A stretch of 58,851 nucleotides of DNA from positions 1 to 58,851 of the IMG/VR virus record IMGVR_UViG_3300042477_000507; one strand, 5' to 3'. This DNA comes from a virus. Lineage: Duplodnaviria > Caudoviricetes. The position numbers were made by a program, and so were the translations under genes. The notes under the pieces are model-generated. The model did not search any database and was not told the origin of the DNA. It saw only the letters and a list, made by a program, of their open reading frames with translations. Of this stretch, positions 23,980 through 56,742 are shown one piece after another. The first letter of the stretch is position 1; each line of letters opens with the position of its first letter.

Positions 23980-23998
23980 TTTCTGTAAAATAAAAAGA

Positions 23999-24338: not shown

Positions 24339-24360
24339 TTTTAAGCTTCTGTATCTCATT

Positions 24361-25257: not shown

Positions 25258-25338
25258 CGTTCAAATCGGAGTTGGACGGTCAAGAGCCAGGAGCTGCAAC
25301 TCGCTGGCTCACCTAATTAAAGCAGGCAGGCGAGAAGG

Positions 25339-25743: not shown

Positions 25744-25752
25744 GATTGACTC

Positions 25753-26061
25753 TCAGTAAAGATTACCGAGTTTGAATTCATTGAGCGCAGATTGAGCAAA
25801 TCTAAAGGCGATAATAGAAATAATTTCGTTTTTGTGCGTAAAAAACAGATCTTTCTGAGTGGAATACTTGCTCCAGAAAAAAGCAAAAAACTTTGAAACA
25901 AACTGCGATGTCTCGAATAAAGCTGAGTCGTAGTAATCAGATTGTTCAACGTTTTGATAAATCCAACTCAGCGATTTCATCAATGCGTTGTATGAAATAC
26001 CATCGTGATTCTCAAGAAACAATGTGAAGTTGCCAACTTCTTGCTTAAATGATGTCTGCAT
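25753..26061 (-). CDS. hypothetical early protein
   Basis: ATG after promoter-hairpin. Confidence 0.6.
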   Translation of the reverse strand: MQTSFKQEVGNFTLFLENHDGISYNALMKSLSWIYQNVEQSDYYDSALFETSQFVSKFFAFFWSKYSTQKDLFFTHKNEIISIIAFRFAQSALNEFKLGNLY

Positions 26062-26081
26062 GAAATCTCTGAAGTAATAAA

Positions 26082-26147
26082 AAAGACCGCCCTGCGTTGA
26101 GCGGTCTTTGCATTGTAGCGCGTTGCTCACTACTTGTCAAGCATTTA
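26082..26147 (-). promoter_or_regulatory. early promoter + stem-loop module 7
   Basis: TTGACA-17-TACAAT then AAAGACCGC..GCGGTCTTT hairpin. Confidence 0.85.
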
Positions 26148-26448
26148 TTTGTTCAGCTTTTTCGCAAATCTGCTTGTATGTGATAGCTCGCATGTCGTCG
26201 TCAAATCCTTCTGCTTCAAGAATTTTCTCGCGCAGTTCAGAAAGAAGCTCAACATGCTTCATGATTACATCAGCCTTGAAAGCAAGCGCTGAGTAAATCT
26301 CTCGACTAACCCACGGCGCAAAAAATGCAGCAACCTGCGCTCTTCTTTTTTCTTTTTTCAGTGTTTCAACGCAATGCTCCATTTGCATAAACAAACCCTG
26401 CATTAAAGCATTGAGTTCGTGCAGATAAAGTTCGGACTGTAGTTTCAT
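26137..26448 (-). CDS. hypothetical early protein
   Basis: ORF track; stop TGA is inside the -35 box. Confidence 0.6.
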   Translation of the reverse strand: MKLQSELYLHELNALMQGLFMQMEHCVETLKKEKRRAQVAAFFAPWVSREIYSALAFKADVIMKHVELLSELREKILEAEGFDDDMRAITYKQICEKAEQINA

Positions 26449-26450
26449 AA

Positions 26451-26909
26451 TCAGTTCAGGAATTGATTAGCTTTTCCGCTGAATACCAAATCCAGCACGC
26501 CACCAAAAGTAGCAGGAGTGACATTGTAATCATACTTCCCAAAACCCTTAGTAATGAAATAAAACTTTGACGTAGCTCGCGCAATCTTGCTTTGCATTTC
26601 GCCGAGACGATCATTTTTTAGAAAGCGCATCATGTGAACTTCGGCGACAGAAAGCTCGTACTCTGATTCTTCTTGTCTGTACTTTTCATAAAGCTTGCAA
26701 TACAGGGGAAGAAAGTTGCTACCCATCTCTGAAATAATCCAGAGACGGGTATCACCTGGGCGCATCTTGTTAATTATCTTTTTATCATGAACAGCAACAT
26801 CTGTCCAGTTGTGTTTTACAACGCTGTCCGCTTCATAACACATCCATTCATGCAATGTTAAATTACGCAGATTGCGCTTAACGCTTTCTTGTCTTGAAAT
26901 AATTTGCAT
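26451..26909 (-). CDS. hypothetical early protein
   Basis: ORF track. Confidence 0.65.
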   Translation of the reverse strand: MQIISRQESVKRNLRNLTLHEWMCYEADSVVKHNWTDVAVHDKKIINKMRPGDTRLWIISEMGSNFLPLYCKLYEKYRQEESEYELSVAEVHMMRFLKNDRLGEMQSKIARATSKFYFITKGFGKYDYNVTPATFGGVLDLVFSGKANQFLN

Positions 26910-26933
26910 GAGCTGTTGTGATTGAACTTACGG

Positions 26934-26969
26934 AGTATAGCGCATTGCAAGTAGCATGTCAAGCATTTA
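26934..26969 (-). promoter_or_regulatory. early promoter 8 (no clear hairpin)
   Basis: TAAATGC-TTGACA-17-TATACT. Confidence 0.85.
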
Positions 26970-26982
26970 TCTTGCATGTAGC

Positions 26983-27543
26983 TCAGATGAATGTAACATC
27001 TAAATCAGGGTAGATCTTTTTGTTTGCAAGTCTAGGCAAGATCTTTCTTGCTTCCGCATAAGGTAAAAACGGCTCACTTCTCACAAAACCCATGCCTGAA
27101 TACGGAGCCACCCATTTAGCAACACTGTTCGCAACATAAATTCTAGGAAACTCCTCAAAGCTTCCAATCCAGATGCAGCCCTCATCTATTGGGGTCTGCG
27201 AGTTAAATCTCGTGCGCACAAATGGAAGAAATGCGCCCTCAGGCAATGCACTCTCATCGTAACTTGTATAAACTCCACCCCATGCACGCATCTGAAGTTG
27301 AAAGTATCTGTCTGTAAACAAACCTGCAATCTCAAATTCTTTCATCGCATTGTTCTCAACTTCTTCAAGCGACTCATAGATATCTTTGAATCTAGTCGTG
27401 TATGATTTGTTGTTGGACAACGCTTCTCTGCATAGATGCAATCTCTTTTTCACCTGACTCGCCGTTATTAAAAGCTCGCCGCGTTCTGAGTATTTCGCAA
27501 CAAATCTCTTCGCTACTTTTCGCGTCATACCTTTCGACTTCAC
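26983..27543 (-). CDS. hypothetical protein
   Basis: 186 aa ORF; overlaps upstream ORF by about 150 nt. Confidence 0.55.
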   Translation of the reverse strand: MKSKGMTRKVAKRFVAKYSERGELLITASQVKKRLHLCREALSNNKSYTTRFKDIYESLEEVENNAMKEFEIAGLFTDRYFQLQMRAWGGVYTSYDESALPEGAFLPFVRTRFNSQTPIDEGCIWIGSFEEFPRIYVANSVAKWVAPYSGMGFVRSEPFLPYAEARKILPRLANKKIYPDLDVTFI

Positions 27544-27997
27544 TCATGATTGGGCGCTTGGTCACAATAAACCCTTTCAGATACTGATGAAGCCCCCAGC
27601 AATAATCCTCTACCCGTAAATTCCACAACCACTCAAGTATTTCAAATGATCTTTTTCTGCACCAATACCAATAAGAACGAAACTTTTCAGCATCTTCTTT
27701 TTTAGAGATCTGCGCAACATAAAAAGTTTCTTGACACAAAAACTCTTTTACTTCGGGCGCCCCAATGCGAGTTATGCAGTAATAATTCCACCAACGATAC
27801 TTAAGTTTCACGTGCGCCTTCAAAACTTGAAAATAAAATCTGCGTCGCATGACGTACAATGATCTCTGTTTCCATTCGATAGAAACATAGTTATTTATTT
27901 TCTCTCGCTGAAATGAATGCCCCTGGGGGCGCAGGAGAATTCCGTGCTTAAACGCTGACTTCGTAGCCTTGGGCACAAATTTCTTGCCGTCACGCAA
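27392..27997 (-). CDS. basic aromatic-rich hypothetical protein
   Basis: 201 aa ORF; start uncertain. Confidence 0.45.
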   Translation of the reverse strand: MRDGKKFVPKATKSAFKHGILLRPQGHSFQREKINNYVSIEWKQRSLYVMRRRFYFQVLKAHVKLKYRWWNYYCITRIGAPEVKEFLCQETFYVAQISKKEDAEKFRSYWYWCRKRSFEILEWLWNLRVEDYCWGLHQYLKGFIVTKRPIMSEVERYDAKSSEEICCEILRTRRAFNNGESGEKEIASMQRSVVQQQIIHD

Positions 27998-28040
27998 GAT
28001 TGTAAGTTACAATCGTCGCAAGCTTTAGGAGCTTCATGTC

Positions 28041-35050: not shown

Positions 35051-35080
35051 TTGACAGGTTGTTTGATCTGATGCTACCTT
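35051..35080 (+). promoter_or_regulatory. sigma70-type promoter
   Basis: TTGACA-18-TACCTT with TG extension. Confidence 0.6.
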
Positions 35081-35105
35081 GCATCTGTTCAACACACAAG
35101 ACGGC

Positions 35106-35867
35106 ATGTCCGTTCATCAGAAGCTCATGCAGGCGCGTATCGCGCTTCAGGGCAAAAAACTCTCAAAAAGCGGTAAGAACAAATTCGCTGGATACAATTA
35201 CTTTGAACTTGGGGACTTCCTCCCGACTGTTCAAGAAATCTTTCTGTCGCTTGAATTGTCAGGTGTCGTTAGCTACGGCAAAGAAGAAGCCACGCTGACC
35301 ATCACCGATTGCAGCAACCCAGACGACTGCATCGAGATCTTCAGCCCCATGTCCAGCGCTGCTCTCAAGGGGGCGCATGAGATTCAGAACCTGGGCGCAG
35401 TGCAGACCTACCTCCGTCGCTACCTCTGGGTGACAGCCATGGAGATCGTTGAGCACGACGCCTTGGATGCTGTTCTGGGCAGCGATGGCGGCACCTCTGC
35501 ACCGAAGGCAGCTCCTGCAGCTCGCAAGCCCGTTGATGAGACACCCGGTGGTCTGCGAGCCAGCGAGGCGTTTGCACCTACCTCGGTCAACGAGAAGCTT
35601 GAAACCAAGTTGATGGACCTGGGCATCACGCAGTACGGAATCAAGACCGTGCTCACGATCACCGAATCACTCAGCCTCGCCGAAATCCCTGAAAACAAAG
35701 CGACGGCGCTGTTGAAAGCAGTGGGCAAAGATCACGTCAGGATGTTCAATCAGGGCAAGAACAGCAAGGGCGCTCAAATTATTCCTGAGCCCGTCAGCGA
35801 CAAGATCAATACCAAGTCGATTGACGATCTTGCAAAAGCTGCTGAAGACGCATTCGGGGACGACTGA
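35106..35867 (+). CDS. erf: ERF-family single-strand annealing protein
   Basis: KSGKNKFAGYNYFELGDFLP and Q.LGAVQTYLRRYL...D. Confidence 0.85.
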   Translation: MSVHQKLMQARIALQGKKLSKSGKNKFAGYNYFELGDFLPTVQEIFLSLELSGVVSYGKEEATLTITDCSNPDDCIEIFSPMSSAALKGAHEIQNLGAVQTYLRRYLWVTAMEIVEHDALDAVLGSDGGTSAPKAAPAARKPVDETPGGLRASEAFAPTSVNEKLETKLMDLGITQYGIKTVLTITESLSLAEIPENKATALLKAVGKDHVRMFNQGKNSKGAQIIPEPVSDKINTKSIDDLAKAAEDAFGDD

Positions 35868-36487: not shown

Positions 36488-36690
36488 CTTCACGCTATCT
36501 CGTTTACCAAGTTGGCTGCATCGAGTGCGGTGTGTCTTCTTACCCCATTAAGGCGTGCGTAACACTTGAAGACGCTCAAGCTGTAGCAAAAGCCCATCCG
36601 AGCACCTGGGAAACCGAGGGCGGTGAAGGATACGTAACCATAATTGACCTAGAAGAATGCAAAACGGTTGTTGATTGTCCCAGCGCTTAG
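36484..36690 (+). CDS. small cassette ORF
   Basis: GCIECGVSS; stop TAG is part of a putative recombination site. Confidence 0.6.
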   Translation: MTSRYLVYQVGCIECGVSSYPIKACVTLEDAQAVAKAHPSTWETEGGEGYVTIIDLEECKTVVDCPSA

Positions 36691-36711
36691 ATCTACACAC
36701 TTCTCTTTCTC

Positions 36712-36912
36712 ATGACTGACCTTCCCTTTCTTGACCTCAAGGTTTCCAACCCGTGTCCAACAATCGTTTACTCGCCAACGAAAGTTGTCTGTCCCAAGCA
36801 CGGCACACACCCTCATACGATCAGCAGCACTATCCCTGGCCATGAAGGCACTTGGTGCATGTTGTGCGCTTTAGAACAACTACACCCTCCGCTTCCTACA
36901 ACCAATGACTGA
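36712..36912 (+). CDS. small Cys/His cassette ORF
   Basis: CPKHG...WCMLC. Confidence 0.65.
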   Translation: MTDLPFLDLKVSNPCPTIVYSPTKVVCPKHGTHPHTISSTIPGHEGTWCMLCALEQLHPPLPTTND

Positions 36913-37268
36913 CCACCCGATCACCCCGCCACCTGAGCTGGTGCATCAGTGGCACAAAGAAACGTGCAAAGATCCCTGTAACGGGGGGCACTTTCTTTGA
37001 ATCAAAAACACTGAAACACGTCGCCACCCAAGCCGCCCGCTGGGGCGCTGATGAACAGCTAGAACAAGACGCAAGGTGGCTTGACACCTGTGCTTTGTTC
37101 AGCACACACTTAACAATCACACCATCTGGAGATGCATTGAGACAAGCAATGCGTTCCAAGCCGCCGAGCTTGAAGGAGCAGGCGCTGGAAGAAGTAGGCG
37201 CCTTTGAAGGTATGGGCACATGCAACATCGACATCATCCGCCGTGCTCTTGAATCCCTGCCTGAGTAA
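36905..37268 (+). pseudogene. HPITPPPELV-type ORF, frameshifted at G6 (36983-36988)
   Basis: Removing one G gives a 120-aa ORF continuing ATQAARWGAD...KPPSLKEQAL...IRRALESLPE. Confidence 0.7.
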
Positions 37269-37273
37269 TTACA

Positions 37274-37486
37274 ATGACCCATCAGATTGAACCTGTTGAA
37301 TTTATCAAACCTGACTTTGCTTACATCTATGCCAAAGTTGCTAGGCATGTAGCAGCAGCTTATGCTGTATGCGGTTATGACGAACATGTTTTAGATAAAG
37401 AACTCCGATTGGCAATGGAAGCCATTGAGTTGTTTGAAAAAGCAAGCATGACCATTTACTCTGTTATTCCTAATCCTAAGGATTAG
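37274..37486 (+). CDS. small cassette ORF
   Basis: ORF track; stop abuts putative recombination site. Confidence 0.6.
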   Translation: MTHQIEPVEFIKPDFAYIYAKVARHVAAAYAVCGYDEHVLDKELRLAMEAIELFEKASMTIYSVIPNPKD

Positions 37487-37510
37487 TAGTCAACATCACT
37501 TCTCTTCCTC

Positions 37511-37807
37511 ATGACTGACTTCCGAAAGCTTTGCGATGAGCTACTCGATGAACTTCAGTTTCAGACAGACTGGAGCGTTGCAGAAGAATTGAAAGAACGC
37601 GCCCGCGCTGCACTAGCCGAGCCCGAGCCGGAGGGGTCGACAGAAGTCGAGATCGCATCCATTTTGCTGGCCTATGCCGTTGTTGAGCCGCAGGTGGGCG
37701 TAAGCCGAATCCTGCACGAAAAGCATTTCGGCAATGCCGCCCGCGCCGTTCTCGCCCGTTGGGGCAACCATCCGGGATCTCCAGATAGTTCAACCCAGCC
37801 CTCCTAG
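37511..37807 (+). CDS. small cassette ORF (MTDFR.LC.EL...RARAALA.PEP...ARAVLARWG type)
   Basis: ORF track; bracketed by two putative sites. Confidence 0.7.
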   Translation: MTDFRKLCDELLDELQFQTDWSVAEELKERARAALAEPEPEGSTEVEIASILLAYAVVEPQVGVSRILHEKHFGNAARAVLARWGNHPGSPDSSTQPS

Positions 37808-37908
37808 TCCGATCAACCTCTGCGTTTGCCAACTTGTAAGCCGTACTTACACGTTGCCCGAACGTGTTAAACATTCCGGAATTTCCGGACAGTTCCTCCA
37901 CCTCTTAA

Positions 37909-38145
37909 ATGACTGACATTCTTGACGACAACCACTACGAGTGGGAATTGGAGGATGACGAAGGCGAATGGCAAGCCGGTGGCTCAGCCAACAGCCTGGA
38001 AGATGTACGGCGTGAAGGGATGCGTTATCTGCAGACCTACGCTCAAGAAGGATTTCACAAGCTAATTATCCGTCAGCACTGCACAAGAACTATTCAGGTG
38101 ATTACCAATGGGCTGAACTTTCACCCGCTGCTCAGGCAGTTTTAA
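37909..38145 (+). CDS. small acidic cassette ORF
   Basis: ORF track; C-terminus probably extended by the extra G at 38110-38112. Confidence 0.6.
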   Translation: MTDILDDNHYEWELEDDEGEWQAGGSANSLEDVRREGMRYLQTYAQEGFHKLIIRQHCTRTIQVITNGLNFHPLLRQF

Positions 38146-38327
38146 CGGCTGTGACGCTGACAAAATACGACGTACCTCCAGAAGGGTTGCCTGCTTTTGC
38201 TGAAGAAATGGCTCCTTTGCTTGCCGCCGCCCTTCGCGCTGCTGCGGATCAGTTCTTTTTTGACTGGAATGGCATGTGCTGCGAAGAGCATCTCAAATCC
38301 ATCGCTACCGAGCTTGAAGCCCTATGA
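38108..38327 (+). pseudogene. LSPAAQAVL paralogue 1, start out of frame by one G
   Basis: ATG-G-GCT GAA CTT TCA CCC GCT GCT; reads AELSPAAQAVL...AAALRAAADQ...IATELEAL*. Confidence 0.7.
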
Positions 38328-38557
38328 CTAAACTTTCACCCGCTGCATATGCAGTATTGGATGCCTACATGAACAACTGTGGCTGGCTAGATGGCCCTCT
38401 CGAAAAAGATTATCGCTGCGCTGCCGCCGTCCTGAGGGCTGCTGCGATGCAACTGCGCAGCGAAGAGTATGCAATCTGCAATGGCTCCTCTTACGCCATG
38501 ATGATCGAAATAGACGATTTACTTGACCTTGCCACCGAACTAGAAAGTGCTTCATGA
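38324..38557 (+). CDS. LSPAAQAVL paralogue 2
   Basis: MTKLSPAAYAVLDA...AAAVLRAAA...LLDLATELE. Confidence 0.75.
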   Translation: MTKLSPAAYAVLDAYMNNCGWLDGPLEKDYRCAAAVLRAAAMQLRSEEYAICNGSSYAMMIEIDDLLDLATELESAS

Positions 38558-38700
38558 ACGACCTTAAAGATAGCCTAATCACCGCATTTGGCGTTCTGGT
38601 CTTCATCTTCTTTGTCCCCATCGTGGGGCTTGGGGGAATCTGGACTGCGTTCTACATTTACTGCGGACTTACGCAACAATCATGCGAGGTGAAGAAATGA
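38554..38700 (+). CDS. small membrane protein (48 aa)
   Basis: Manual read; ATGA overlaps at both ends. Confidence 0.6.
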   Translation: MNDLKDSLITAFGVLVFIFFVPIVGLGGIWTAFYIYCGLTQQSCEVKK

Positions 38701-38909
38701 CTGATCTTTCCCCTGCCGCGCAGGCGGTGCTGGATGCCGCCGACAATGTGCGCATTAACGTCGATTGGTGGCCAGAAGGTATGCCGGAGATTGTCGCCGC
38801 CGCCCTGCGTGCTGCTGTAGCCCAGACGCAAAGGCATCCTGGCCACGACATATGGCAGTGCGACGCCGACGACTTACTCGCCATCGCTGATGAGCTTGAT
38901 GCCCAGTAG
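38697..38909 (+). CDS. LSPAAQAVL paralogue 3
   Basis: MTDLSPAAQAVLDAA...AAALRAAV...LLAIADELD. Confidence 0.75.
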   Translation: MTDLSPAAQAVLDAADNVRINVDWWPEGMPEIVAAALRAAVAQTQRHPGHDIWQCDADDLLAIADELDAQ

Positions 38910-38983
38910 TCAGACCCACCTCTAGCCTTCTTCTAGTCAACTCCTAATTTCCCTCAAATTAGAACTTCAGTCTCTCCGCCCCC

Positions 38984-39256
38984 GTGCCTCTCAACAAAGC
39001 CTCCCTGCCCTGTCCCAAATGCAACGCACTGATCACAAAGGTAACGAGTTCCCTAAGAACTCCGAGCGGAGATTTTTACAGATACAGGCAGTGTGAGTTC
39101 TGCGGGCACAGATACAAGACGATACAGCTCGCTGAAATTCTTGCAGCACCAGGCGAGGTAAGAACAACTCACGAAGGTCACGCAGCCATTGTCAACTGGA
39201 AGAAAGTTTTTGATCGAGTCCTTCCGTCTCTTTTGCAGAAACATGACCAAACTTGA
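38984..39256 (+). CDS. NrdR-like zinc-ribbon protein
   Basis: CPKC...KVTSS...RYRQCEFCGHRYKT. Confidence 0.65.
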   Translation: MPLNKASLPCPKCNALITKVTSSLRTPSGDFYRYRQCEFCGHRYKTIQLAEILAAPGEVRTTHEGHAAIVNWKKVFDRVLPSLLQKHDQT

Positions 39257-39416
39257 ACACGAACTCTGTCTCGCCATCTCCCCGATCTTCAATGATCGAG
39301 CGCCTGGAGAATGGGAAGCGGAATCAAAACGCGCGTTGCTTGCAATTATCGTTTACTTGCGAGATAATGGGTACTGGCAGGCTGCCGACTTCTTGCTCTC
39401 AAACACTTCTCTTTAA
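39243..39416 (+). CDS. hypothetical protein
   Basis: Start moved to MTKLEHEL. Confidence 0.5.
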   Translation: MTKLEHELCLAISPIFNDRAPGEWEAESKRALLAIIVYLRDNGYWQAADFLLSNTSL

Positions 39417-41349: not shown

Positions 41350-42080
41350 AGGATCGCGGTGATATTTTCTATGGCGCCCGTCTCGTTGCTGATGCACGTC
41401 TTCATCTAGGCCCTTTGATCAATGGGGGCGACGGGGAATTATTCTTTGCGACGATGTGGAAAATTATCGACAGCAAAGTGTATTTGGGATACAAAACATT
41501 TGACAACAGAGACATAGTGATGAAAGGAATCAAAGATTTTATCTTTAACTTTCATCACGGACTAGGAATCAAGAAAGCAACTATCGCAACGTTTCTTGCT
41601 AATTGCGCAAAAGCGGCGATCAAAGACAAGACTCAAGCGCAATACGCATCACGTTTTACAAAATGGCTGGGCGAGCAGAATGAAGGTTTTGACTTCCCGC
41701 AAGAGTTCTTTGAATACATGCGGATTAAGTATTATATCAATAAGCGTTACACAAAAAAGAATCCAGACAAGTACAGAAGATTGCAAATTCTTGAAAGAAT
41801 CTACAATCAATACCCACAGCTTTTGCAAGAAGTTGGTGCGGGCAGAAAATACAAAGACATTTTTGATTGCGCAGAAGATCTGACAATTTGGGAGCGAAAG
41901 CGCACTGTGCGCCCTCTTGCTCTTTACAACAACCCAACAGTAAAGCAAACAGAAGAACTGGCGGAAAAGCTAAGTGTCAAACTCAGCAAGCTGAATCGAC
42001 GTGTTTTAATCGCTAAGCTCATAGAAATCTACAAACGCGACAAAGGGATTGATGACGGCAAACTTGTTGACAACACTTGA
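41343..42080 (+). CDS. hypothetical protein
   Basis: 245 aa ORF. Confidence 0.65.
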   Translation: MLKDRGDIFYGARLVADARLHLGPLINGGDGELFFATMWKIIDSKVYLGYKTFDNRDIVMKGIKDFIFNFHHGLGIKKATIATFLANCAKAAIKDKTQAQYASRFTKWLGEQNEGFDFPQEFFEYMRIKYYINKRYTKKNPDKYRRLQILERIYNQYPQLLQEVGAGRKYKDIFDCAEDLTIWERKRTVRPLALYNNPTVKQTEELAEKLSVKLSKLNRRVLIAKLIEIYKRDKGIDDGKLVDNT

Positions 42081-42591
42081 GCAATGCGCCGCTCAGTCCT
42101 ATTCATTCTTTGTCGCCGGCAAACCCGAGACACAGGGCTCCAAAAGCGCCTTTGGCCGCGCCTACACCGACCGTGAAGGCCGTCAGCGCGTTGCTGTGGC
42201 AATGGTGGAGCAGTCCAAGGGTCTCTACGCCTGGAGGGCTTCTATCGGGCGCATGGCGGCAATCACTCGCCCACGAAACTGGGAAACAAGTGGGCTATTT
42301 GTACTGTCAACATTATTTTACATGCCACGCCCTAAGTTGCATTTCAACAGCAGAGGCGAACTGAAGAGCAACGCCCCTCTGTTTCATTCCAATAAGGGCG
42401 ATGCAGACAAGCTGCTCAGGGCCTGCGGTGATGCACTAACAAAAATATGTTATGATGACGACGCTTTGATCGTTGCGGCTTCATCAATGAAGCTGTTTTG
42501 CGATCCGTCTGACGGCCCAGGCGTTCACATCAAGGTCACTCGCCTTGATGTGGAAGCTGCCACCACCATGACGCTTGCACTGAAGCCCTGA
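42049..42591 (+). CDS. rusA: RusA-like Holliday junction resolvase
   Basis: G.P.TQGSK, F.MPRP, DADKLLRA..DALT...DDDALIV. Confidence 0.85.
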   Translation: MMTANLLTTLEQCAAQSYSFFVAGKPETQGSKSAFGRAYTDREGRQRVAVAMVEQSKGLYAWRASIGRMAAITRPRNWETSGLFVLSTLFYMPRPKLHFNSRGELKSNAPLFHSNKGDADKLLRACGDALTKICYDDDALIVAASSMKLFCDPSDGPGVHIKVTRLDVEAATTMTLALKP

Positions 42592-48740: not shown

Positions 48741-48815
48741 TAAATCAAAGCAAATAAAAAAGCCTATGCACATGTCCTGAGACTGCGCACGGGCTTTGGC
48801 GGACCTACTAAAACT

Positions 48816-49133
48816 CTAGCCCCAGGGGACTCCTGCGGCTTTTGTCGGCGCTTGCTGTTCGTCAATCTGAGCTTGCAGGGCCGCCTCGATCTCAGCGATT
48901 TTCTCAGGGCCGCCCAACTTGTCCTGCACCCATCCCAGTACGACCTCTTTTGTGAGATCAGCGTAGGGGATCATGGTGGCAGGATCTGGCTGCTCCAGTC
49001 CGACACTGCCATAGGCGGAACTGCCGTAGATGCCGTTGTTAGCCGAAATCGTATAATGAACCGTAAAAATTGCACCATCAGAGGTGTGGCGCTCCATATT
49101 TGCCACATTCCATTCAAATACGGTGTTGGCCAT
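48816..49133 (-). CDS. tail-fibre-associated protein
   Basis: W.VANMER...DG...TVHY...YGSVGL...IPYADLT.E.V.GWV...GVPW, a family typically adjacent to such fibres. Confidence 0.75.
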   Translation of the reverse strand: MANTVFEWNVANMERHTSDGAIFTVHYTISANNGIYGSSAYGSVGLEQPDPATMIPYADLTKEVVLGWVQDKLGGPEKIAEIEAALQAQIDEQQAPTKAAGVPWG

Positions 49134-49155
49134 GCGCAAGGGAAGCTTTCGCTTC

Positions 49156-50010
49156 TCATAGTACAGGCATTTCGTATTCTTGGGTGGTGTTGCAGTAGTG
49201 CTTGAAGATCACCTCGCTGGTATTTCCGGCCCATGCAGCGACCTGCGGTACGGGAATCCCTGCTTCGATCCAGCGACTGATAGCGGTGTGGCGACAATCA
49301 TACGGACGATAGACGTGCGAAATTAAGCCGACACGCTTTATTGGAAGTAGTTTTTTGCGAAAATAGCTCTGAAAGGCAAGACGATCCCATGGAAATATAA
49401 AATCATTGCTATGTGGAACTGAGTCAAGAATTTCTTTGCAGCGCTTATTCAGTGGAACCCAGCGCTTTTTATTTGTTTTTGTGCTATTTTTTAAGCCATG
49501 CGTCAACGTATAGTTCTGATGCACAAGAATTTTGCCATCCTTAATGTCCTTCCACATAAGCGCTCTGACTTCGCCAGTTCGCATTGCTGTTTGAAGCATG
49601 AACTCTGCATAGTATCCCCAATTTACGTTTTGATATGTAAACTTGGCCCCGAGAACGCCTAGTACAATCTCAACTTCATTTCTGGGTATTACGATAATTT
49701 CATTGTCACGTTGAGGCGCTTTTGGCATCTTGAAACTTGCGAGGGGGTTTCGCTCAAGAAGCGCTACGTCCTCTTGTGCCGCCCATTTGCACATTGTTTT
49801 AAGGTACATTGCAACTCGGCGAGACATGAGAACTGGTTTTTGTCCCAGCACCCAAATCATCGCTTGGCGCGCCTGCAATGGATCTTGCACGGGACAGCCT
49901 TTCAGCCATTTCGTAACTTGGCGATAGTCAGAGGTCAGGCTGGTTGGACAGAGCGAGATGGATCGCTCTTGCAGGAACGCATCCCAAAGTTCGAACAGGG
50001 TCGGTGGCAC
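49156..50010 (-). CDS. tyrosine recombinase (short, no arm-binding domain)
   Basis: TAMRTGEV.AL.W.DI, K..TKT, RPYDCRHT, W.GN, KHY: R-K-(Y)xxR-(N)-Y catalytic set. Confidence 0.92.
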   Translation of the reverse strand: MPPTLFELWDAFLQERSISLCPTSLTSDYRQVTKWLKGCPVQDPLQARQAMIWVLGQKPVLMSRRVAMYLKTMCKWAAQEDVALLERNPLASFKMPKAPQRDNEIIVIPRNEVEIVLGVLGAKFTYQNVNWGYYAEFMLQTAMRTGEVRALMWKDIKDGKILVHQNYTLTHGLKNSTKTNKKRWVPLNKRCKEILDSVPHSNDFIFPWDRLAFQSYFRKKLLPIKRVGLISHVYRPYDCRHTAISRWIEAGIPVPQVAAWAGNTSEVIFKHYCNTTQEYEMPVL

Positions 50011-50021
50011 AAAAAGAAAAA

Positions 50022-50041
50022 AGTGACATCTCTGTCACTTT
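50022..50041. promoter_or_regulatory. perfect palindrome upstream of recombinase
   Basis: AAGTGACA-TCTC-TGTCACTT. Confidence 0.55.
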
Positions 50042-50073
50042 AATTCATATTTCAGGCGCAGAAGGGTCAAAGA

Positions 50074-50271
50074 CTAGTAACGAGTGCCGGTGTAGCTGCA
50101 GCTTGGGCAATGCACCCCATACTGCGGTGGCCAACTTGTAAGGCAAACTGATGGGTTGGAGTCCATCAGCTCCTGTTGGCACTCAGGGCAAGCGATCCCG
50201 TTGGGATGGGGCTGGGTGTTTAGCTGGAACATGCCCAGCGCCTGCTGATTGTGTTGATCGAGGGTCTGCAT
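50074..50271 (-). CDS. 65-aa zinc-ribbon ORF bracketed by two putative recombination sites
   Basis: CPEC...CPSC; sites at 50062-50076 and 50272-50286. Confidence 0.7.
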   Translation of the reverse strand: MQTLDQHNQQALGMFQLNTQPHPNGIACPECQQELMDSNPSVCLTSWPPQYGVHCPSCSYTGTRY

Positions 50272-50288
50272 TAGAGAAGGGGACTCGT

Positions 50289-53168
50289 CTAGTTGGCTTC
50301 GAGTGCAGCAACACGAGCCTTCAGTGATTCGATTTCACCAATGGCTTCCTGCAACGCAGCCGTCAGCAGCGGCACCAGCTTGGACTGGTCGATGCCTTGG
50401 TAGACGGGGTTGCCATCATCATCCACTGCATCTTTGGAGCCCGTGACCGCTTCAGGAACTACAGCTTGAGTTTCGTGAGCGATGAAGCCGTCAACAGTGT
50501 GGCTGGGGTCAGCCTTGAAGTTGAAGCGGCTAGGCTTCAGTTGCCGAAGGCGGGTGATGCCGTCAGTGACTGCGGTGACGTTTTCCTTAAGGCGGTAGTC
50601 GGAAGAGGTGTTGTAAGAGGTGGCCGTTGTCGAGACACTAACTGAACCGACTTCTGTTTCGTTGCGGTAAAAACGAATAGCGTTTCGGGCATCGGTATCA
50701 TCAAAGGTTTGGTTAATATCCAGCACCGAAACAGTGCTTTTACCGTTGTAAACCCAGCGACCAGTATCACCCGCGTACGCAGAGGATATTGTGTTTGTAG
50801 CAAGCGTACTAATGGTCCCGCCAATATACAAACTTCCATCACTAGAAATCCTCATCCGCTCCGTCGGAGAACTCGCCCCATCCGCAGTAGTGGAGAACAC
50901 TAGGCGGCCTGGGTAGCTAGATCCAGCAGTCCAAGTCCCTCCATCCCTTTGTGCCTGTATCCACGCAGCATTTACATGCGTGGCATCGCCAAACATGATA
51001 TAGCCGAGGTCTTCTGTTGAAGTTGGTCCATTTGTAGTTGTGCAGCAACGCAACACACCAGGACCAGTGGTACCGCTGTATCCTTGGAGAAGGAGTGTTG
51101 TATTGCTAGACGTGGAAGACGTACCAACTAAGAGGCGCTTCGATGTATCAATGGTGACTGCTGCGCTGCCGTTTTGAATAATGTCAAAGCCGCCAGCGTA
51201 GTTAGTTCCAATGGCGGCGTTCTGTGTGGTGGAACCACCGCGCAACTCCATGTGGCGAGTGCCGTCGCCAACACGAATAATTGGCGCCGAAGAATTAAGG
51301 ACTTCTAGTGTGGTGTTAACTGTAGAAGTGCCAATCCCTACGTTGCCTGCGGAGTTGATTACCAACAAAGGTGTTGTGAACGTTGTCCCCCCTGCAGCGG
51401 TAGATGGCGTGATCTCAAGTGCATTATCTACATTTTGTTGAGCGCCTATTTTCCAGTTATATTTTGTGCCTGTTCCATAAAAGATAGCCGCACCAGTATC
51501 GCCAGCATCATTTGATCCAATACTTACAACTGTTGCGCCGCCAGCAACGTGTAACTTTGAGCCAGGCGAACTAGTCCCTATGCCTACGTTGCCTGAGGAG
51601 TCGATGCGGGCGCGTTCGGAGGGAGTTGTGGCCGTGCCATTAGAAGACACGGCGAGTACAAGCGCCCCGCCATTATTGGCACCCGCATTAGGGTTAAGTG
51701 CTTGAATGGCCGCAACTGCTTCGCTGCCGCCAAAAGTATTGGAACAGAAAAACTGCATCTGAGCAATGTTGCCAGCATTTGATGCAGACTGGTTCCTCAG
51801 CGTGAGAAGATTTGAGGTAGTTGAACTACCTGTGGCACCGGCAATGTCTAGTGTCGTGCTAGGACTCGTAGTGCCCACCCCTAATCCAGTGGGCGTAAGG
51901 CGCATCATCTCGGTTGGGTCCGAGGCGCTATTTGTAGTCTTTATTGCAAACGCAAGGCTTCCAATGCGATGATCGCTGTTGAGGCCGTAAGCGCCAATCC
52001 TCGCCACTTCTCTGGTGCCAAGCCAGGAAGAAGTATTGTCTGAATAGTATTTAAGTTGAGCCCCCTCTTGACTGGCATTTAGGTAGCGACCTGACCGAAT
52101 TCCTAAAGCATTTGCCGCATCGGTTGTTCCATTAGCAATTTCGAATTTATCGCTAGGCGAACTAGTCCCCACGCCTACGAGCCCTGCCGAGGTGATGCGC
52201 AGGCGTTCCTGTTCATTTGTTTGAATAGTGAACGGAATTGCTGAGCGCGTTTGGATAGACGCAAGTGATCCAGTGTTGTAGAACTCACAACCGACGCCGC
52301 TGTTTCCGGTTAAGCGAAGCGTAGCCGTTGTGCTTCTTTGGATTTCAACACCACTGCCATTACCAAATCCGGCAAACGAAGATCCAATATTGATATTCCC
52401 ATTCGCATCAACAAACAACCTGCCAGACCCACCAGTGCTGATGGCTACTTGGTCTGCGCCGGGGGAGTAGATGCCGGTGTTGGTGTCGCCAGTGAATGCA
52501 ATGGAAGGTGCAGCAGCACTACCACCTGCAGCGCTAAAAATGCCAGTGGTTTGAACTGTCTGGCTGCCGAAATCAGGACTAATCTTGGTGCCAGCAATGG
52601 CGGCGCTTGAATTAATATCTGCGTTGACGATGGTATCATTTCTAATCATCGTACTGGTCACTGTTTCACTATCACCAGTAGTGACAATGGTGCCATTCAC
52701 ATCAGGCAGCGTGATCGTCTTGTCGGACGCAACTGACGCCGGGGCCTGCAGGGCGATGTGATTGGTACCATTTGCAGTGGTCTCGCGGAAGCGCACCTGC
52801 TGCTGGTTGTCCATCACCAGCGCACCAGTCATCACGTCGCCGTTCACGTCTACGAACGTGCCGCTCTCGCTGCGCCACGCTGATCCATCCCAGATCTTGA
52901 GCACGTAGGTACCGCCGGTGGTGTCGAGCCATTGCTCACCCACGCTGTTGCCCGTTGCACCGCCGCTAGCAGGCGAAACGTTGGGTGCCGTAGTGCCAAC
53001 ATGCACCGGGCCTACTTTTACCAGGCCACCAGTGCTGTCCTTGAAGAACAGACCAGGGCTTGCACTATTTGTATTGATTGCGGGACGACCATCAACAAGT
53101 CCCGCAGGAAGGGGGCGCTTGTTTGCGGTGCTGCTGCGGAGAAGTTGCAGGGGATTAACGCTGGACAT
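50289..53168 (-). CDS. modular tail fibre with C-terminal intramolecular chaperone (peptidase S74)
   Basis: Repeated ER.RI...G.VG.GT junctions; SDYRLKEN...GFIAHE.Q.VVPEAV...LVPLL...coiled coil. Confidence 0.9.
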   Translation of the reverse strand: MSSVNPLQLLRSSTANKRPLPAGLVDGRPAINTNSASPGLFFKDSTGGLVKVGPVHVGTTAPNVSPASGGATGNSVGEQWLDTTGGTYVLKIWDGSAWRSESGTFVDVNGDVMTGALVMDNQQQVRFRETTANGTNHIALQAPASVASDKTITLPDVNGTIVTTGDSETVTSTMIRNDTIVNADINSSAAIAGTKISPDFGSQTVQTTGIFSAAGGSAAAPSIAFTGDTNTGIYSPGADQVAISTGGSGRLFVDANGNINIGSSFAGFGNGSGVEIQRSTTATLRLTGNSGVGCEFYNTGSLASIQTRSAIPFTIQTNEQERLRITSAGLVGVGTSSPSDKFEIANGTTDAANALGIRSGRYLNASQEGAQLKYYSDNTSSWLGTREVARIGAYGLNSDHRIGSLAFAIKTTNSASDPTEMMRLTPTGLGVGTTSPSTTLDIAGATGSSTTSNLLTLRNQSASNAGNIAQMQFFCSNTFGGSEAVAAIQALNPNAGANNGGALVLAVSSNGTATTPSERARIDSSGNVGIGTSSPGSKLHVAGGATVVSIGSNDAGDTGAAIFYGTGTKYNWKIGAQQNVDNALEITPSTAAGGTTFTTPLLVINSAGNVGIGTSTVNTTLEVLNSSAPIIRVGDGTRHMELRGGSTTQNAAIGTNYAGGFDIIQNGSAAVTIDTSKRLLVGTSSTSSNTTLLLQGYSGTTGPGVLRCCTTTNGPTSTEDLGYIMFGDATHVNAAWIQAQRDGGTWTAGSSYPGRLVFSTTADGASSPTERMRISSDGSLYIGGTISTLATNTISSAYAGDTGRWVYNGKSTVSVLDINQTFDDTDARNAIRFYRNETEVGSVSVSTTATSYNTSSDYRLKENVTAVTDGITRLRQLKPSRFNFKADPSHTVDGFIAHETQAVVPEAVTGSKDAVDDDGNPVYQGIDQSKLVPLLTAALQEAIGEIESLKARVAALEAN
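50888..52447. repeat. seven in-frame TAGN-N7-WCTN putative recombination sites in tail fibre
   Basis: 50888, 51116, 51326, 51572, 51869, 52163, 52433; spacings 228/210/246/297/294/270. Confidence 0.7.
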
Positions 53169-53205
53169 TCCTTAACGCCCGCAGGCCGGAACTTACCCCT
53201 ACAGC

Positions 53206-56200
53206 TTAGTAAGTGCCGTCATCTAGATCGCTAGTCAAGGCCAAAGTACCGGAGGCGTTGGGCAGAGACACAGTGTGATCGGCGGTTGGATCAACTGCTG
53301 AGAGAGTTGTTTCATATGCGTCCTCGGTACTTCCTTCAAAAACAAGAGCAGCAGTTGACGACAGCGCAATGTTGCCAGTCATCGTGCCGCCACTTGTCAC
53401 GAGGGCGTCATAAGTAGCCCACTCAAGACCTGTTGCGGTTCCACTGTTAGCTTTAAGGATAAAGCCATTTGTGCCAACAGCAAGCTTGGATAGCACGTTG
53501 GTGCCAGATCCTGCGATCAAATCGCCTTTCACATAACTGGTAAGTCCAGTACCGCCAACGGTTGTTGCAAGCGTGCCGCTGGTGATATTCGTGGCAATAC
53601 GGCATTCGCTACTTACTTCTTCAATTGCCGCTTGGACATTTGTGCTAGAAATCTGGCCGGCGGGCGTAAACGAAACCTGTGTAGCGACCTGAGCGATATA
53701 GGCGTCAGATGATTCAATCCGCACCCATGCAGTGCCCGTAGAAAGAATTAGGTCAGGCGGCAGAAGTCCAACTGTCGGTGCCGGACTCGTACCAGTACCC
53801 GCGTTGCTTACAATGACAAAGTAGTTTTGGTTTGTAGCGCTAGCAGCGGGCAGCGGGTTGCCGACGCTAAGGCCAAGCGAAGAACCATCTGCTGTGACTG
53901 ACGCAATTTGGTTTGTATTTGCGTCGTAAGTACCTGCAAAAATAACAGTACCTGCAGTAATACCAACCGGCTGCCAAACGTTACCGTCCCACATGTAGAC
54001 GGTGCGCTCTAGCGGATTTAAGAAGAACTGACCGATAAAATCAGCGGATGGAACCGTAGAACCGATCTGCGCCGTAGAGTAATCAGCAAGTTTGGCGGCA
54101 GTAATGCTTTCATTGGCTAGTGCAGATGAGCCGAAGGTGCCCGTTGCAATCTTGCTCGCATCCAAGCTCGGGATGTCGGCGGCGAGCAGTGAAGCCCCAG
54201 CGGTTACATGACCTTGCGCGTCAAATGTAATCTTTGTGGCTGTACCAGCAGTAACACTATTGCTGTGGTTTAATGTTCCCGTGCTAATTGATAAACCCGT
54301 GCCGGGAACAACGGCACCCTTGGTTGAGCTTGTTGCGTCAGGCAAGTCAGCAGGGACAAGCGCGCGGAAAGTTGGTGATGCTGCGTCTCCCGTAGTTGGA
54401 CCAGCGAATACGCGATTCGCCGATTGAGTGTCGAGCGTTGTTGTAATTTCAGCGCTATAAGGGTCTGGATAGGCGACGGAGAAAGTAAGTGGTGAAGAAT
54501 CAACAAATGTCAGCGAGGCAAGCGAAGCCTGGCGCAGCCAGGCAATACCGTCCCAGGTATATTCAACCGCTGTGGCTGTATTGATCCATTGTTGACCAAT
54601 AAAGGCGCCAGAACCAGATGGGTTTGCGTCAGCAACAATCGCGGCAGAGTTGTCTGCCATCTTTGCTGCAGTTACCGCATTATTAACTATTTTTGTTGTA
54701 GTGACCGAATCGGTGGCGAGCTTTGCGTTGGTTACAACGCCATCGCCAATCGTTGCAGCAAATGAACCAGTACCCGAGCCTGTTACATCACCGGTGAGCG
54801 TGATCGTCTGATCACCTGTATTAGTACCAGAGCTAGTGCCGCTAAACGTGCCGCTGAAGGTTCCATTTTGGGTTGCCAGCGTGCCCAGGCCCAGGGTGTT
54901 GCGCTGAGCAGCAGCATCAGCATCGTCGATCAACGCACGGCCCGCCGCAGTCAGCGTGATCTCTTCGACTGCCCCGGCGCCGGCAGACGAACGACCCAGC
55001 ACTCGATCAGTGCTGCTGACGTTCTGCAGCTTGTCGTAAGTGACTGCACTCGAGGCGAGCTTGGCTGTGGTAACAGCGCCTGCCCCGAGAGCGGTTGCAT
55101 CAACAGCTCCGGAGGCTAGCTTTGCTGTCGTTACAGCGCCAGTGGCAAGCTTTGCAGCAGTGACGGCTGCATCAACCAATTCGGCGGTGTTAACCGCGCC
55201 ATCGCCGATCTGCCCAGCCGTAATCGAGTTGGCTGCAATCTTGGCACCAGGAATTGAACCGTCAGCAAGATTGAGCTTGCCAGCAGCGATGGTTGCATCA
55301 GCAATTTTGGCGTTAGTGACTGCTCCATCGCCAAGCTTGGCTGTAGTGACAGCATCATCTGCGAGCTTCGCGCTCGTGACAGCAAGATTGAGAATGGCAC
55401 CAGAATCAACAGCGTTATCCGCAAGCTCGGAGGCGCCAATAGCATTAGGTGCGACTTGAGATGCGGTGATTGAATCAGTCGCAATCTTTGCTGAAGTTAC
55501 TGCGCCATCAGCGATTTTGGTAGTAGTAACGGCGGAGTCAGCAAGCTCGCTTGCTTGAACTGCACCCGCCGCGATTTGTACGCTCGTGACCGAATCGTTA
55601 ACGAGTTTGGCGCCAGGTACTGAGCCATCTGCTAGGTTCAGCTTGCCTGCGCTGATTGAGGCATTGGCGATCTTGGCATCAGTAACCGAAAGATCGCCAA
55701 GTTTCGTCGTTGTTATAGCGCCGTTGGCAATCTTGGCCTCTGTAACTGCAAGACCCTGGATGGCTGCAGTATCAACAGCATTGTCAGCAAGCTCAGAAGC
55801 ACCAACGGCATTAGGTGCAATCTGATCCGTAGTGATCGAATCAGTAGCAATCTTGCCAGCGGTTACGGCGCCACTGCCAAGCTTGTCTGTGGTAACAGAA
55901 CCATCTGCCAGCTCGCTCGTGCCAACAGCAGAAGCCCCAATCTGCGTGGCAGTAATAGAATCAGTAGCAATCTTCGCTCCAGGTACAGATCCATTGGCAA
56001 GATTTAACTTGCTATAGGCAATTGTTGCTTCTGCAATTTTGTCATTAGTGACTGCAAGATCGCCTAGTTTTGCAGTTGTGACAGCACCTCCAGCAAGCTT
56101 GGCATCGGTGACAGCAAGTGCCTGAATTGCGGCTGTATCAACTGCGTTATCGGCAAGCTCGGAAGCGCCTACCGCACTCGGCGCGATTTGGGTGGCTGTG

Positions 56201-56742
56201 ACGCTATCAGTTGCAAGCTTGGCGGTTGTAACCGCACCATCAGCTATCTTGACCGTGCTGATACTGCCGTCTGCATAGGCTGCAGTACCGAGTGCGGTAA
56301 CTTTGGCGGTAGTGACTGCACCATCGGCCAGCTTGCCTGTGGTGACTTGCAGATCGCCGATGCCGGCTAAAACTTGCTGATAGGCGCTACCATTGAAAAT
56401 CTGAAGATTGCTGGTACTGGTATTAAAGTAGCCGCGTCCTTCAAAGTTATTGGTTGTCGGAGTAGTGGTTTGAACAGCAATAGAGCTGTCGGCAGCAAGC
56501 TTTGTCGCAGTAATGGCGCCATCCGCAAGCGCAGCAGAGCCAAGTTTTGTGACGCTGGTTTGATCAAGCTTGGCGAGGTCAATCTCACCGTTATCAACTA
56601 GGTCAATGCCTGCCGCTACCAGATCCTTTGCGGTAACTTTCTTGGTTTCGCTCGCAGATATATCAGCAATAGGAAGTACGTCAGTGGCTGAAACGCCTGC
56701 TTTGGACAGCGCGTTTAATTGAGTAATACGCTGGTCGGCCAC
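53206..56742 (-). CDS. long tail fibre/shaft protein with 10-aa repeats
   Basis: 1178 aa, dozens of (L/I)ADGAVTTAK-type repeats; MADQRITQL N-terminus. Confidence 0.8.
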   Translation of the reverse strand: MADQRITQLNALSKAGVSATDVLPIADISASETKKVTAKDLVAAGIDLVDNGEIDLAKLDQTSVTKLGSAALADGAITATKLAADSSIAVQTTTPTTNNFEGRGYFNTSTSNLQIFNGSAYQQVLAGIGDLQVTTGKLADGAVTTAKVTALGTAAYADGSISTVKIADGAVTTAKLATDSVTATQIAPSAVGASELADNAVDTAAIQALAVTDAKLAGGAVTTAKLGDLAVTNDKIAEATIAYSKLNLANGSVPGAKIATDSITATQIGASAVGTSELADGSVTTDKLGSGAVTAGKIATDSITTDQIAPNAVGASELADNAVDTAAIQGLAVTEAKIANGAITTTKLGDLSVTDAKIANASISAGKLNLADGSVPGAKLVNDSVTSVQIAAGAVQASELADSAVTTTKIADGAVTSAKIATDSITASQVAPNAIGASELADNAVDSGAILNLAVTSAKLADDAVTTAKLGDGAVTNAKIADATIAAGKLNLADGSIPGAKIAANSITAGQIGDGAVNTAELVDAAVTAAKLATGAVTTAKLASGAVDATALGAGAVTTAKLASSAVTYDKLQNVSSTDRVLGRSSAGAGAVEEITLTAAGRALIDDADAAAQRNTLGLGTLATQNGTFSGTFSGTSSGTNTGDQTITLTGDVTGSGTGSFAATIGDGVVTNAKLATDSVTTTKIVNNAVTAAKMADNSAAIVADANPSGSGAFIGQQWINTATAVEYTWDGIAWLRQASLASLTFVDSSPLTFSVAYPDPYSAEITTTLDTQSANRVFAGPTTGDAASPTFRALVPADLPDATSSTKGAVVPGTGLSISTGTLNHSNSVTAGTATKITFDAQGHVTAGASLLAADIPSLDASKIATGTFGSSALANESITAAKLADYSTAQIGSTVPSADFIGQFFLNPLERTVYMWDGNVWQPVGITAGTVIFAGTYDANTNQIASVTADGSSLGLSVGNPLPAASATNQNYFVIVSNAGTGTSPAPTVGLLPPDLILSTGTAWVRIESSDAYIAQVATQVSFTPAGQISSTNVQAAIEEVSSECRIATNITSGTLATTVGGTGLTSYVKGDLIAGSGTNVLSKLAVGTNGFILKANSGTATGLEWATYDALVTSGGTMTGNIALSSTAALVFEGSTEDAYETTLSAVDPTADHTVSLPNASGTLALTSDLDDGTY

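Follow-up and report, generated by a model that had tools for sequence, protein, structure and literature searches.

Results

A hypervariable slot behind a tail-fibre gene

The viral record IMGVR_UViG_3300042477_000507 of IMG/VR, whose 58,851 nucleotides (nt) make up the whole stretch analysed here (hereafter the window; completeness estimate 85%), encodes on its minus strand an open reading frame (ORF) of 65 amino acids (aa), ORF65, which lies between a tail-fibre gene and a gene for a tyrosine recombinase (the integrase). Comparison with related phages indicates that ORF65 is an exchangeable cassette, one of a large pool of small accessory genes, because the relatives hold many different small genes between the same short boundaries. 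By the same comparison, the slot that it occupies is a hypervariable region behind the tail fibre in S-LBS1-like freshwater cyanosiphoviruses, bounded by a junction motif. We favour, as the probable explanation, that the cassettes are swapped by recombination at these short conserved linkers; the neighbouring integrase is probably not what moves the ORF65 cassette. ORF65 and its two flanking sites are the following.

50074..50271, minus strand: ORF65, 65 aa (from the ORF list, relatives and conserved cysteines)
50272..50288, minus strand: left junction site ACGAGTCCCCTTCTCTA, with the core GAGTCCCCTTC at 50286-50276 (position weight matrix, PWM, score 15.8)
50059..50076, minus strand: right junction site TAGTCTTTGACCCTTCTG, with the core at 50076-50066; its TAG is the ORF65 stop codon

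An earlier reading of this DNA, made from the sequence only, had described the ORF as boxed by two sites, and both the sequence and the ORF list agree with that description; the boundaries are, moreover, exact in relatives. On the minus strand, the fibre stop codon TAG (50291-50289) is followed by ACGAGTCCCCTTCTCTA at 50288-50272 and immediately by the ATG of ORF65, and the ORF65 stop codon TAG (50076-50074) forms the first bases of TAGTCTTTGACCCTTCT. The contention that there is no room for a promoter was also borne out, as the ATG comes only 17 nt after the fibre stop and no promoter-like site was found on the coding strand in 49000-53400. A purine run of the Shine-Dalgarno type is likewise absent between the fibre stop and the ATG.

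Within the window alone, the two sites have little in common (AGTC and a shifted CCTTCT). The loose pattern ACKAGTCYYY has five matches in the window against 0.97 expected, and none of 100 shuffles reached five; two of the five are copies inside the fibre gene. The significance of the sites rests on relatives, because both are variants of a motif that recurs at the slot. The left site is a variant of the TAGTCCCCTTC / TAGTCCTACTC type found behind fibre genes, and its core GAGTCCCCTTC occurs in five copies in five loci, where it combines four kinds of left flank with four kinds of right flank. The right-hand form TAGTCTTTGAC is present in six loci, always upstream of the integrase, with five kinds of flank on either side.

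The relatives were drawn from 80 viral contigs, fetched by an integrase search, that encode integrase relatives of 61-82% identity. At least 300 nt of upstream sequence was available for 67 loci, a fibre ORF lay upstream in 51 of these, and 42 distinct fibre-to-integrase intervals resulted, with the window and S-LBS1 included. The intervals measure 20-2280 nt and hold 0-8 ORFs, which belong to 42 families arranged in 29 different orders, and at least one motif copy is present in 40 of the 42. Some contain HNH_3 homing-type endonucleases or DUF433 and DUF7936 proteins, and others only bare hairpins or nothing. Free-standing HNH_3 (and NUMOD4) genes stand directly behind the fibre-proximal site in loci L012 (1244-1735) and L011 (2148-2630); the L012-type gene recurs in L041 and L032, so that HNH genes occupy four of the 42 intervals. 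In locus L007, a complete tRNA-Arg(ACG) at 5888-5961, the sole tRNA in 54 loci scanned, lies exactly between the left and right sites in place of protein-coding cassettes. Empty forms were found as well: the 86-nt ORF-free spacer of S-LBS1 retains TAGTCCCCTTC and TAACCTTTGAC, thus both site types, and L045 and L025 carry two tandem sites 20 nt ahead of the integrase start. The check proposed with the earlier reading therefore came out as anticipated, the interval between fibre and recombinase differing among relatives in its small ORFs (or holding a tRNA, or being empty) while its boundaries are conserved.

ORF65 and its product

ORF65 is dispensable in relatives; its family is present in two of the 42 intervals. 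Relatives of the protein are encoded in 20 viral loci at 55-100% amino acid identity. A fibre-like gene lies upstream in 13 of these loci, and four of the other seven have less than 120 nt of upstream sequence; an integrase is nearby in only six of the 20. Four cysteines forming two CxxC knuckles (C28, C31, C55 and C58) are invariant across 13 aligned sequences, and the AlphaFold model consists of an N-terminal helix followed by four strands (predicted local distance difference test, pLDDT, 77.8). We conclude that ORF65 is a real gene and that its product is a small protein with a predicted N-terminal helix and four-cysteine zinc ribbon. Searches of curated families and solved folds assigned it no function. 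Against Pfam and NCBIfam there were zinc-ribbon matches below threshold only, in addition to phrog_30869 at E 4e-4; Foldseek with the model against PDB returned nothing at E of 0.001 or less, the best being generic zinc ribbons at E 0.4 or worse; and the ESM Atlas search gave viral hypothetical clusters only. A word-indexed protein search found three relatives, one of them labelled by its source as an uncharacterized protein with a PIN domain, a label that lacks Pfam support.

Homology breaks at the two sites

The strongest indication of exchange comes from divergent genomes that share the cassette and little else. Four IMG/VR contigs (L086-L089) are 100% identical to the window across 50271-50091 in a background of about 50-80% identity; the shared identity begins at 50289, their fibre C-terminus is unrelated, and their integrase has 69% protein identity. 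Lake metagenome runs (X4, X5 and others), analysed as assembled contigs, gave the same picture. Over 50059-50289, X4 contig 2 and X5 contig 13 differ from the window at one position, and their sequences diverge from it on either side. X4 contig 1 follows the window on the integrase side, over 48800-50076, with no mismatch and then continues into about 350 nt of other sequence, and an X5 contig shares the end of the fibre gene as far as 50278, after which it has different slot content. Thus, the unit of about 231 nt made up of ORF65 and its two sites (50289..50059) is found with at most one mismatch in genomes that are otherwise divergent, and the edges of the contig matches at both sites confine the crossovers to about 12-13 nt each (50289-50278 and 50076-50064). 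Among the 15 of 61 contig joints listed, none touches 50059-50289. No RNA data set was among the listed runs that contain this DNA.

Pairs of loci that are alike on one side and unlike on the other behave similarly. When the left sides were alike, homology was lost mostly at +11 to +14 (13 of 20 pairs); when the right sides were alike, it was lost at -10 to -1 in 62 of 132 pairs and at +22, the integrase start, in 48. On these comparisons, the motif is a junction and does not merely reflect common ancestry.

The junction motif

The motif is strand-specific and pyrimidine-rich and covers about 17-25 nt, with the core TAGTC-N4-TC, often followed by AC-TTCT; outside the selected core, information extends over positions of about -8 to +23. 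It marks the ends of the slot and also many junctions within it. We collected 71 unique 75-nt contexts. The form TAGTCCTACTC occurs in 32 copies in 31 loci, usually behind the fibre, and is flanked by eight kinds of sequence on the left and 17 on the right; TAGTCACCTTC occurs in 30 copies in 30 loci, usually 23 nt before the integrase start, with 18 kinds on the left and eight on the right. The same short sequence therefore unites unrelated left and right flanks in different genomes, as expected of a conserved boundary sequence. Other variants are TAGTCCCCTTC, TAGTCATTCCC (at internal junctions) and TAGTCTTTGAC. No copy of either TAGTCCTACTC or TAGTCACCTTC was found on the opposite strand of 713,919 nt. 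The accessible text of the literature on S-LBS1 (including PMC6157547) and of that reached by wider searches, supplementary files excluded, contains no mention of the motif.

The position of the motif relative to genes raises the alternative that it is an expression adaptor without any role in recombination, consisting of a stop codon and a G-poor re-initiation leader or RNA signal. Illegitimate recombination could then produce junctions at any position, and selection for those that retain the adaptor, not the mechanism of recombination, would make the breakpoints coincide with the motif. In 47 of 98 contexts, an ORF of at least 35 aa takes its stop codon from the TAG of the motif; 19 further contexts have an ORF end no more than 12 nt away; and in 51 of the 98 an ORF begins after the motif, mostly 15-23 nt downstream. 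The missing Shine-Dalgarno-type run ahead of ORF65 would fit such a role, as would the concentration of TAG stops in variable regions, given that most other junctions of the window use TGA or TAA. Nevertheless, 32 of the 98 copies lie behind no ORF end, at some copies the next element is a tRNA, a hairpin or a second copy of the motif instead of a start codon, and most operon junctions of the same genome lack the motif, so that it is not the phage's general coupling signal. Moreover, a 231-nt block with at most one mismatch in backgrounds of about 65% identity is more easily made by exchange at shared sequence. We therefore consider an adaptor devoid of any recombination role unlikely and prefer exchange at the linkers.

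Two other proposals for the motif were discarded. A stem enclosing the core (GCCCAG...CTGGGC) showed no excess of complementarity over shuffled partners at any offset; when the 6 nt before the core were compared with offsets of 8-29 nt after it, all 22 offsets at 97 unique sites equalled the shuffled controls (|z|<2). A general promoter or nick site was set aside, the motif being single-copy in the podovirus S-CBP1 and present in only two regions of the window. Several relatives, as well as the podoviruses S-CBP1 and S-RIP1, do have a hairpin after the left site; these hairpins lie outside the conserved core, and many copies have none.

The TTTGAC-type site (50059-50076 in the window; also in L004, L028 and L030) contains a -35-like TTGAC. 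In several relatives, a TTGACA-N17-TAGTGT promoter lies 20-30 nt past this site, outside the conserved core; in the window, the site is succeeded by a terminator-like hairpin and not by a promoter.

The neighbouring integrase

The sequence-only reading had taken ORF65 for a captured, integron-like cassette beside its recombinase. Its exchangeable nature, evident from the foreign flanks, stands, but the analogy with integrons and a causal role of the adjacent recombinase found no support. In that scheme, the adjacent tyrosine recombinase would capture and excise promoterless cassettes, or invert DNA against the copies inside the fibre gene. The window, S-LBS1 and the 80 fetched relatives do all have a tyrosine recombinase next to the slot, although the 80 were collected via an integrase search, and the ORF65 cassette has no promoter of its own. 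A dedicated role in cassette movement would also suit the accessible part of the description of S-LBS1, where evidence of integration is lacking and neither lysogeny nor an attachment site is demonstrated (PMC6157547). Similarly, an integrase search of species-representative prokaryote genomes gave three matches (L083-L085) and no integrated copy. The three are short contigs of metagenome-assembled genomes assigned to unrelated phyla (Methylacidiphilales, Hyphomonadaceae and Ignavibacteria), and are probably mis-binned phage contigs. An attP role for the motif, with a matching site in the host, gained no support from this search.

Other observations speak against this scheme. PF00589 is absent from all five relative records inspected for it, including G001 (94% complete) and G002 (95% complete), and these two nevertheless carry motif sites behind the fibre and in a second small-ORF array, together with an ORF65-like gene; the array thus does not depend on a resident integrase. 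The position of the integrase relative to the DUF7936 gene varies, since in L090 it comes only after DUF7936, the next gene. In S-CBP1, the motif stands behind the fibre gene and the annotated integrase is 33 kb away. The 284-aa integrase matched only XerD in NCBIfam, at 15.5 bits against a cut-off of 329.6 bits, and no integron-integrase model, and its Pfam match is the generic Phage_integrase. The gene is co-directional with the cassette and downstream of it, past a terminator-like hairpin, and neither the sites nor their surroundings show complementarity. Together with the strand bias of the motif and the nature of the fibre-internal copies (see below), these observations make an integron-like system of capture, excision or inversion by the adjacent recombinase highly improbable. 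The integrase would instead be variable cargo, a passenger of the slot.

Look-alikes inside the fibre gene

The sequence-only reading had also pointed to a likeness between the left site and copies inside the fibre gene and had considered inversion conceivable. Neither point withstood inspection. The fibre-internal copies at 51570-51586 and 52161-52177 are on the opposite strand and belong to a 33-nt coding repeat. This repeat occurs three times and encodes in frame ER.RI.S.G.VG[IV]GTSSP at fibre residues 329, 526 and 608 (in short, G-x-V-G-I/V-G-T-S) and is unrelated to the junction motif. Protein constraint thus accounts for the fibre-internal copies, which leaves the inversion idea without basis; the two commonest cores, as noted above, have no opposite-strand copy.

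A different part of the same gene, at 50826-50945 on the minus strand (residues ~742-781), encodes ...GRLVFSTTADGASSPTERMRI... and scores 15.9 with the junction matrix even though it is coding. Its summed contig depth in X4 is 15,460 against about 20-500 alongside, and many contigs of the lake runs break at 50847 and at 50906-50916. The segment has the appearance of a conserved linker within this gene, at which modules would be swapped.

The motif outside the slot

Motif copies of the same type stand at the junctions of a second small-ORF array of the window.

37484..38950, plus strand: second small-ORF array, with TAGTAGTCAACATCACTTCT at 37484 and TAGTCCGATCAACCTCT at 37805
38907 and 38934, plus strand: further junctions of this array, TAGTCAGACCCACCTCT and TAGTCAACTCC, respectively (PWM scores of 15.8 and 15.3 in the array)

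The record G001, which lacks the integrase, retains two exact variants, TAGTCAACATC and TAGTCAGACCC, at the matching place with different content between them; its homology to the window ends at 36913 and restarts at 38935. The array region as a whole (36690-39260, plus strand) lies downstream of the ERF gene, and its junction variants include TAGTCCGATCAAC. Several of its proteins end in ELEAQ or ELDAQ, as do the slot families F1 and F4 of relatives.

The motif was also found in podoviruses. In S-CBP1 (L119), TAGTCCTACTCACTACT directly follows the fibre stop, at 37085, as a single copy in a 46.5-kb genome; S-CBP4 carries the identical 17-mer TAGTCCTACTCACTACT at 36513-36529 after its fibre stop, and S-RIP1 (L115) carries the variant TAACCCTACTCTCTACT. 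These three phages are estuarine T7-like cyanopodoviruses. Behind the fibre stop of five isolates examined, the motif was present in two, a partial copy in one, and none in two. The 17-mer following the fibre stop has 86% mean identity between S-CBP1 and the siphoviral loci, compared with 42% for the preceding coding sequence, bearing in mind that 11 of the 17 positions were preset by the search pattern. Such conservation is also what an expression adaptor would lead one to expect, under the same reservation. The presence of the 17-mer behind podovirus fibre stops links the motif, in more than one phage family, to the 3' end of fibre modules of the S74 type.

Neighbouring genes and other features of the window

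The minus-strand gene order is fibre (1178 aa), fibre (959 aa), ORF65, tyrosine recombinase, a DUF7936 gene, small ORFs and endolysin. Among cultured phages, the freshwater cyanosiphovirus S-LBS1 is closest (69.9% identity across 49% of a 2.5-kb query); in this phage, the integrase directly follows the tail-fibre gene.

56742..53206, minus strand: large fibre gene, 1178 aa (ORF list)
50289..53168, minus strand: tail-fibre gene, 959 aa, with a C-terminal Peptidase_S74 intramolecular chaperone domain (PF13884, E 7e-10)
50011..50041, minus strand: terminator-like hairpin and T run, stem at 50041-50020 (terminator scan: 9-pair stem and TTTCTTTTT)
49156..50010, minus strand: tyrosine recombinase, 284 aa, GTG start (PF00589, E 5.5e-12; phrog_1 integrase, E 4.2e-36)
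35079..35867, plus strand: ERF-superfamily single-strand annealing protein (PF04404, E 2.9e-07, 31 bits against a 25-bit cut-off)
42049-42591: RusA (34.6 bits)

The variable slot is bordered on its upstream side by the gene for the 959-aa fibre, a protein that matches tail-fibre families of PHROG, with phrog_18345 as the best (E 1.7e-104). The hairpin at 50041-50020 has a predicted RNA folding energy of -16.3 kcal/mol (z -2.97) and ends, with its T run, one base ahead of the integrase GTG; this terminator-like element would end the transcription unit of fibre and ORF65 just ahead of the integrase.

Elsewhere in the window, the region from about 14000 to 28000 (minus strand) has a G+C content of 0.37-0.42, against 0.45-0.56 in the remainder, and contains small ORFs without Pfam matches. 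The promoter-like sequence ATGCTTGACA.GTAATGT....GTG.TATAAT occurs in nearly identical form in two intergenic gaps (16476-16550 and 22024-22097) and in a looser form at 26910-26982.

Discussion

We propose that co-infecting relatives would exchange slot contents by recombination inside short shared linkers. A crossover in the motif would leave the upstream gene correctly terminated and provide a standard leader for the downstream gene, and the resulting presence of working genes on both sides may explain why the motif persists, although about a third of the copies fit neither role. Since ERF and RusA are both encoded in the window, a short-homology pathway is at hand, and the ERF-family annealing protein is a plausible candidate for driving such exchange. 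The homing endonuclease genes of the slot may sometimes assist, and the motif may double as a translation-coupling adaptor. We infer both the enzyme and the primary function of the motif in this scheme.

Several observations weigh against this proposal. The proposed recombination is read from assembled contigs, in which circles, nicks and rare junctions do not show, and the putative ERF role is deduced purely from the presence of the gene. The crossover stretches of about 12-13 nt are short for ordinary homologous recombination, and a dedicated enzyme would account for them equally well. Locus L044 has eight ORFs with two sites matching the regular expression and L032 has six ORFs with none; many array-internal junctions are without a recognisable site, and hence not every gene is individually boxed. 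Apart from the 32 of 98 contexts in which no ORF of at least 35 aa ends at the motif or lies within 12 nt of it, 47 of the 98 have no subsequent ORF start, so that the adaptor idea, too, misses some copies. The strand bias of the PWM matches (85 scoring at least 18 on the motif strand against three on the opposite strand) was obtained with a matrix trained on the favoured strand, and the loci are mutually related, so that copy counts do not equal independent events.

One could envisage that a dedicated strand-specific DNA enzyme, either a nickase or an HNH endonuclease resident in the slot, recognises the motif and turns it into a recombination hot spot. The strict strand specificity of the motif, its arrangement, in which a fixed pentamer and a fixed dinucleotide enclose a variable N4, and the short crossover stretches are all in keeping with this idea, as are the HNH_3 (and NUMOD4) genes directly behind the left site in L012 and L011, with the L012 type also in L041 and L032. 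The accessible text of PMC3517423 gives nick consensus sequences of CGACxxxxxCCTA/CTCCGG for phiKMV-like phages and TACT/RTGMC for phage tf, and the commonest motif form shares CCTACTC and TACTG with them, which is a resemblance only. The two sites of the window, however, have neither CCTACTC nor TACTG, and S-CBP1 has one copy of the motif, compared with 4-14 nick sites per genome in the nicked phages described in the accessible part of that paper (PMC3517423). Furthermore, HNH genes occupy only four of the 42 intervals, and none was detected among the window proteins scanned, which did not include all small ORFs. A hot spot created by such a nickase or slot-resident endonuclease is, in our judgement, decidedly improbable. 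The wider notion that TAGTC-N4-TC is the recognition site of a dedicated phage DNA enzyme, be it a strand-specific nickase, an endonuclease or, in some lineages, an orphan tyrosine recombinase, is unlikely. If it were true, cyanophages of different families, from fresh and estuarine waters alike, would share a site-directed cassette exchange that amounts to a viral analogue of the integron, in which accessory genes, tRNAs, homing endonucleases and even an integrase are docked behind the receptor-binding fibre gene.

Exchange at short shared linkers, which we prefer, would make the slot an unusually clean case of mosaicism. Short boundary sequences are a long-standing proposal for phage mosaicism that, according to the accessible text of PMC3029335, have seldom been found at real junctions. 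Here, a single motif family marks nearly all slot versions (40 of 42), the breakpoints fall within about 12-13 nt, and the 231-nt block recurs in several lake metagenomes. The same 17-mer stands behind fibre genes in siphoviruses and podoviruses. Because the slot lies at the 3' end of a host-range determinant, the motif may also serve the exchange of fibre modules. The S-LBS1-like integrase, for which lysogeny has not been demonstrated, would itself be variable cargo.

Comparison with known systems

Integrons comprise an integrase (IntI, a subfamily with an extra domain), an attI site and cassettes whose attC sites contain imperfect inverted repeats that fold as a hairpin. The slot resembles them in its promoterless small genes, arrayed by a tyrosine recombinase gene, read through from upstream and variable between conserved ends. 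It differs in that the 284-aa integrase is not of the IntI type, the sites at the cassette ends are linear sequences of about 17-25 nt and not hairpin attC sites, and the array exists without the recombinase. Its orientation is also wrong for an integron, as the integrase, instead of being divergent beside attI and a promoter, points in the same direction as the cassettes and lies behind them.

Morons and the lambda b region are accessory genes located between tail-fibre genes and att-int, and the dispensable genes between tail fibre and integrase described here occupy a comparable place. Classic morons have their own promoter and terminator, whereas ORF65 is promoterless and bounded by a shared motif. 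In shufflons and invertible fibre segments, inverted repeats inside coding sequence allow C-termini to be swapped. As in the shufflon (Rci, sfx) and Gin/Cin systems, a recombinase gene here adjoins an adhesin or fibre gene with short repeats; unlike them, all copies of the motif are direct and outside the fibre ORF, neither main core occurs on the opposite strand, and the apparent inverted copies are peptide repeats.

The promoter-early stem-loops (PeSLs) of T4-type phages offer a closer parallel. As described in the accessible text of Arbiol et al. 2010 (PMC2839356) and Comeau et al. 2014 (PMC4122927), these are short, conserved non-coding motifs that recur on either side of small, non-essential ORFs of hyperplastic regions, and indels and replacements between close relatives end at the motifs, which was attributed to recombination between motif copies. 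In the slot, too, a conserved motif flanks small ORFs that vary between relatives, and indels and replacements break off at it. The T4-type PeSLs, again from the accessible text, combine a sigma-70-type promoter with a terminator stem-loop, and their mini-circles were shown experimentally (PMC2839356, PMC4122927). The motif reported here, known so far from sequence, has neither a sigma-70-type promoter, in keeping with the lack of coding-strand promoter-like matches in 49000-53400, nor a stem within its conserved core; it embeds a stop codon and sits in a late-operon slot of siphoviruses and behind podovirus fibre genes. The boundary sequences of lambdoid phages provide a further precedent, for which homologous recombination at short gene-boundary sequences was proposed to unite unrelated modules (summarised in Pope et al. 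2011, PMC3029335, accessible text). The slot differs from the lambdoid case in that one motif family marks 40 of the 42 intervals and is common to different phage families.

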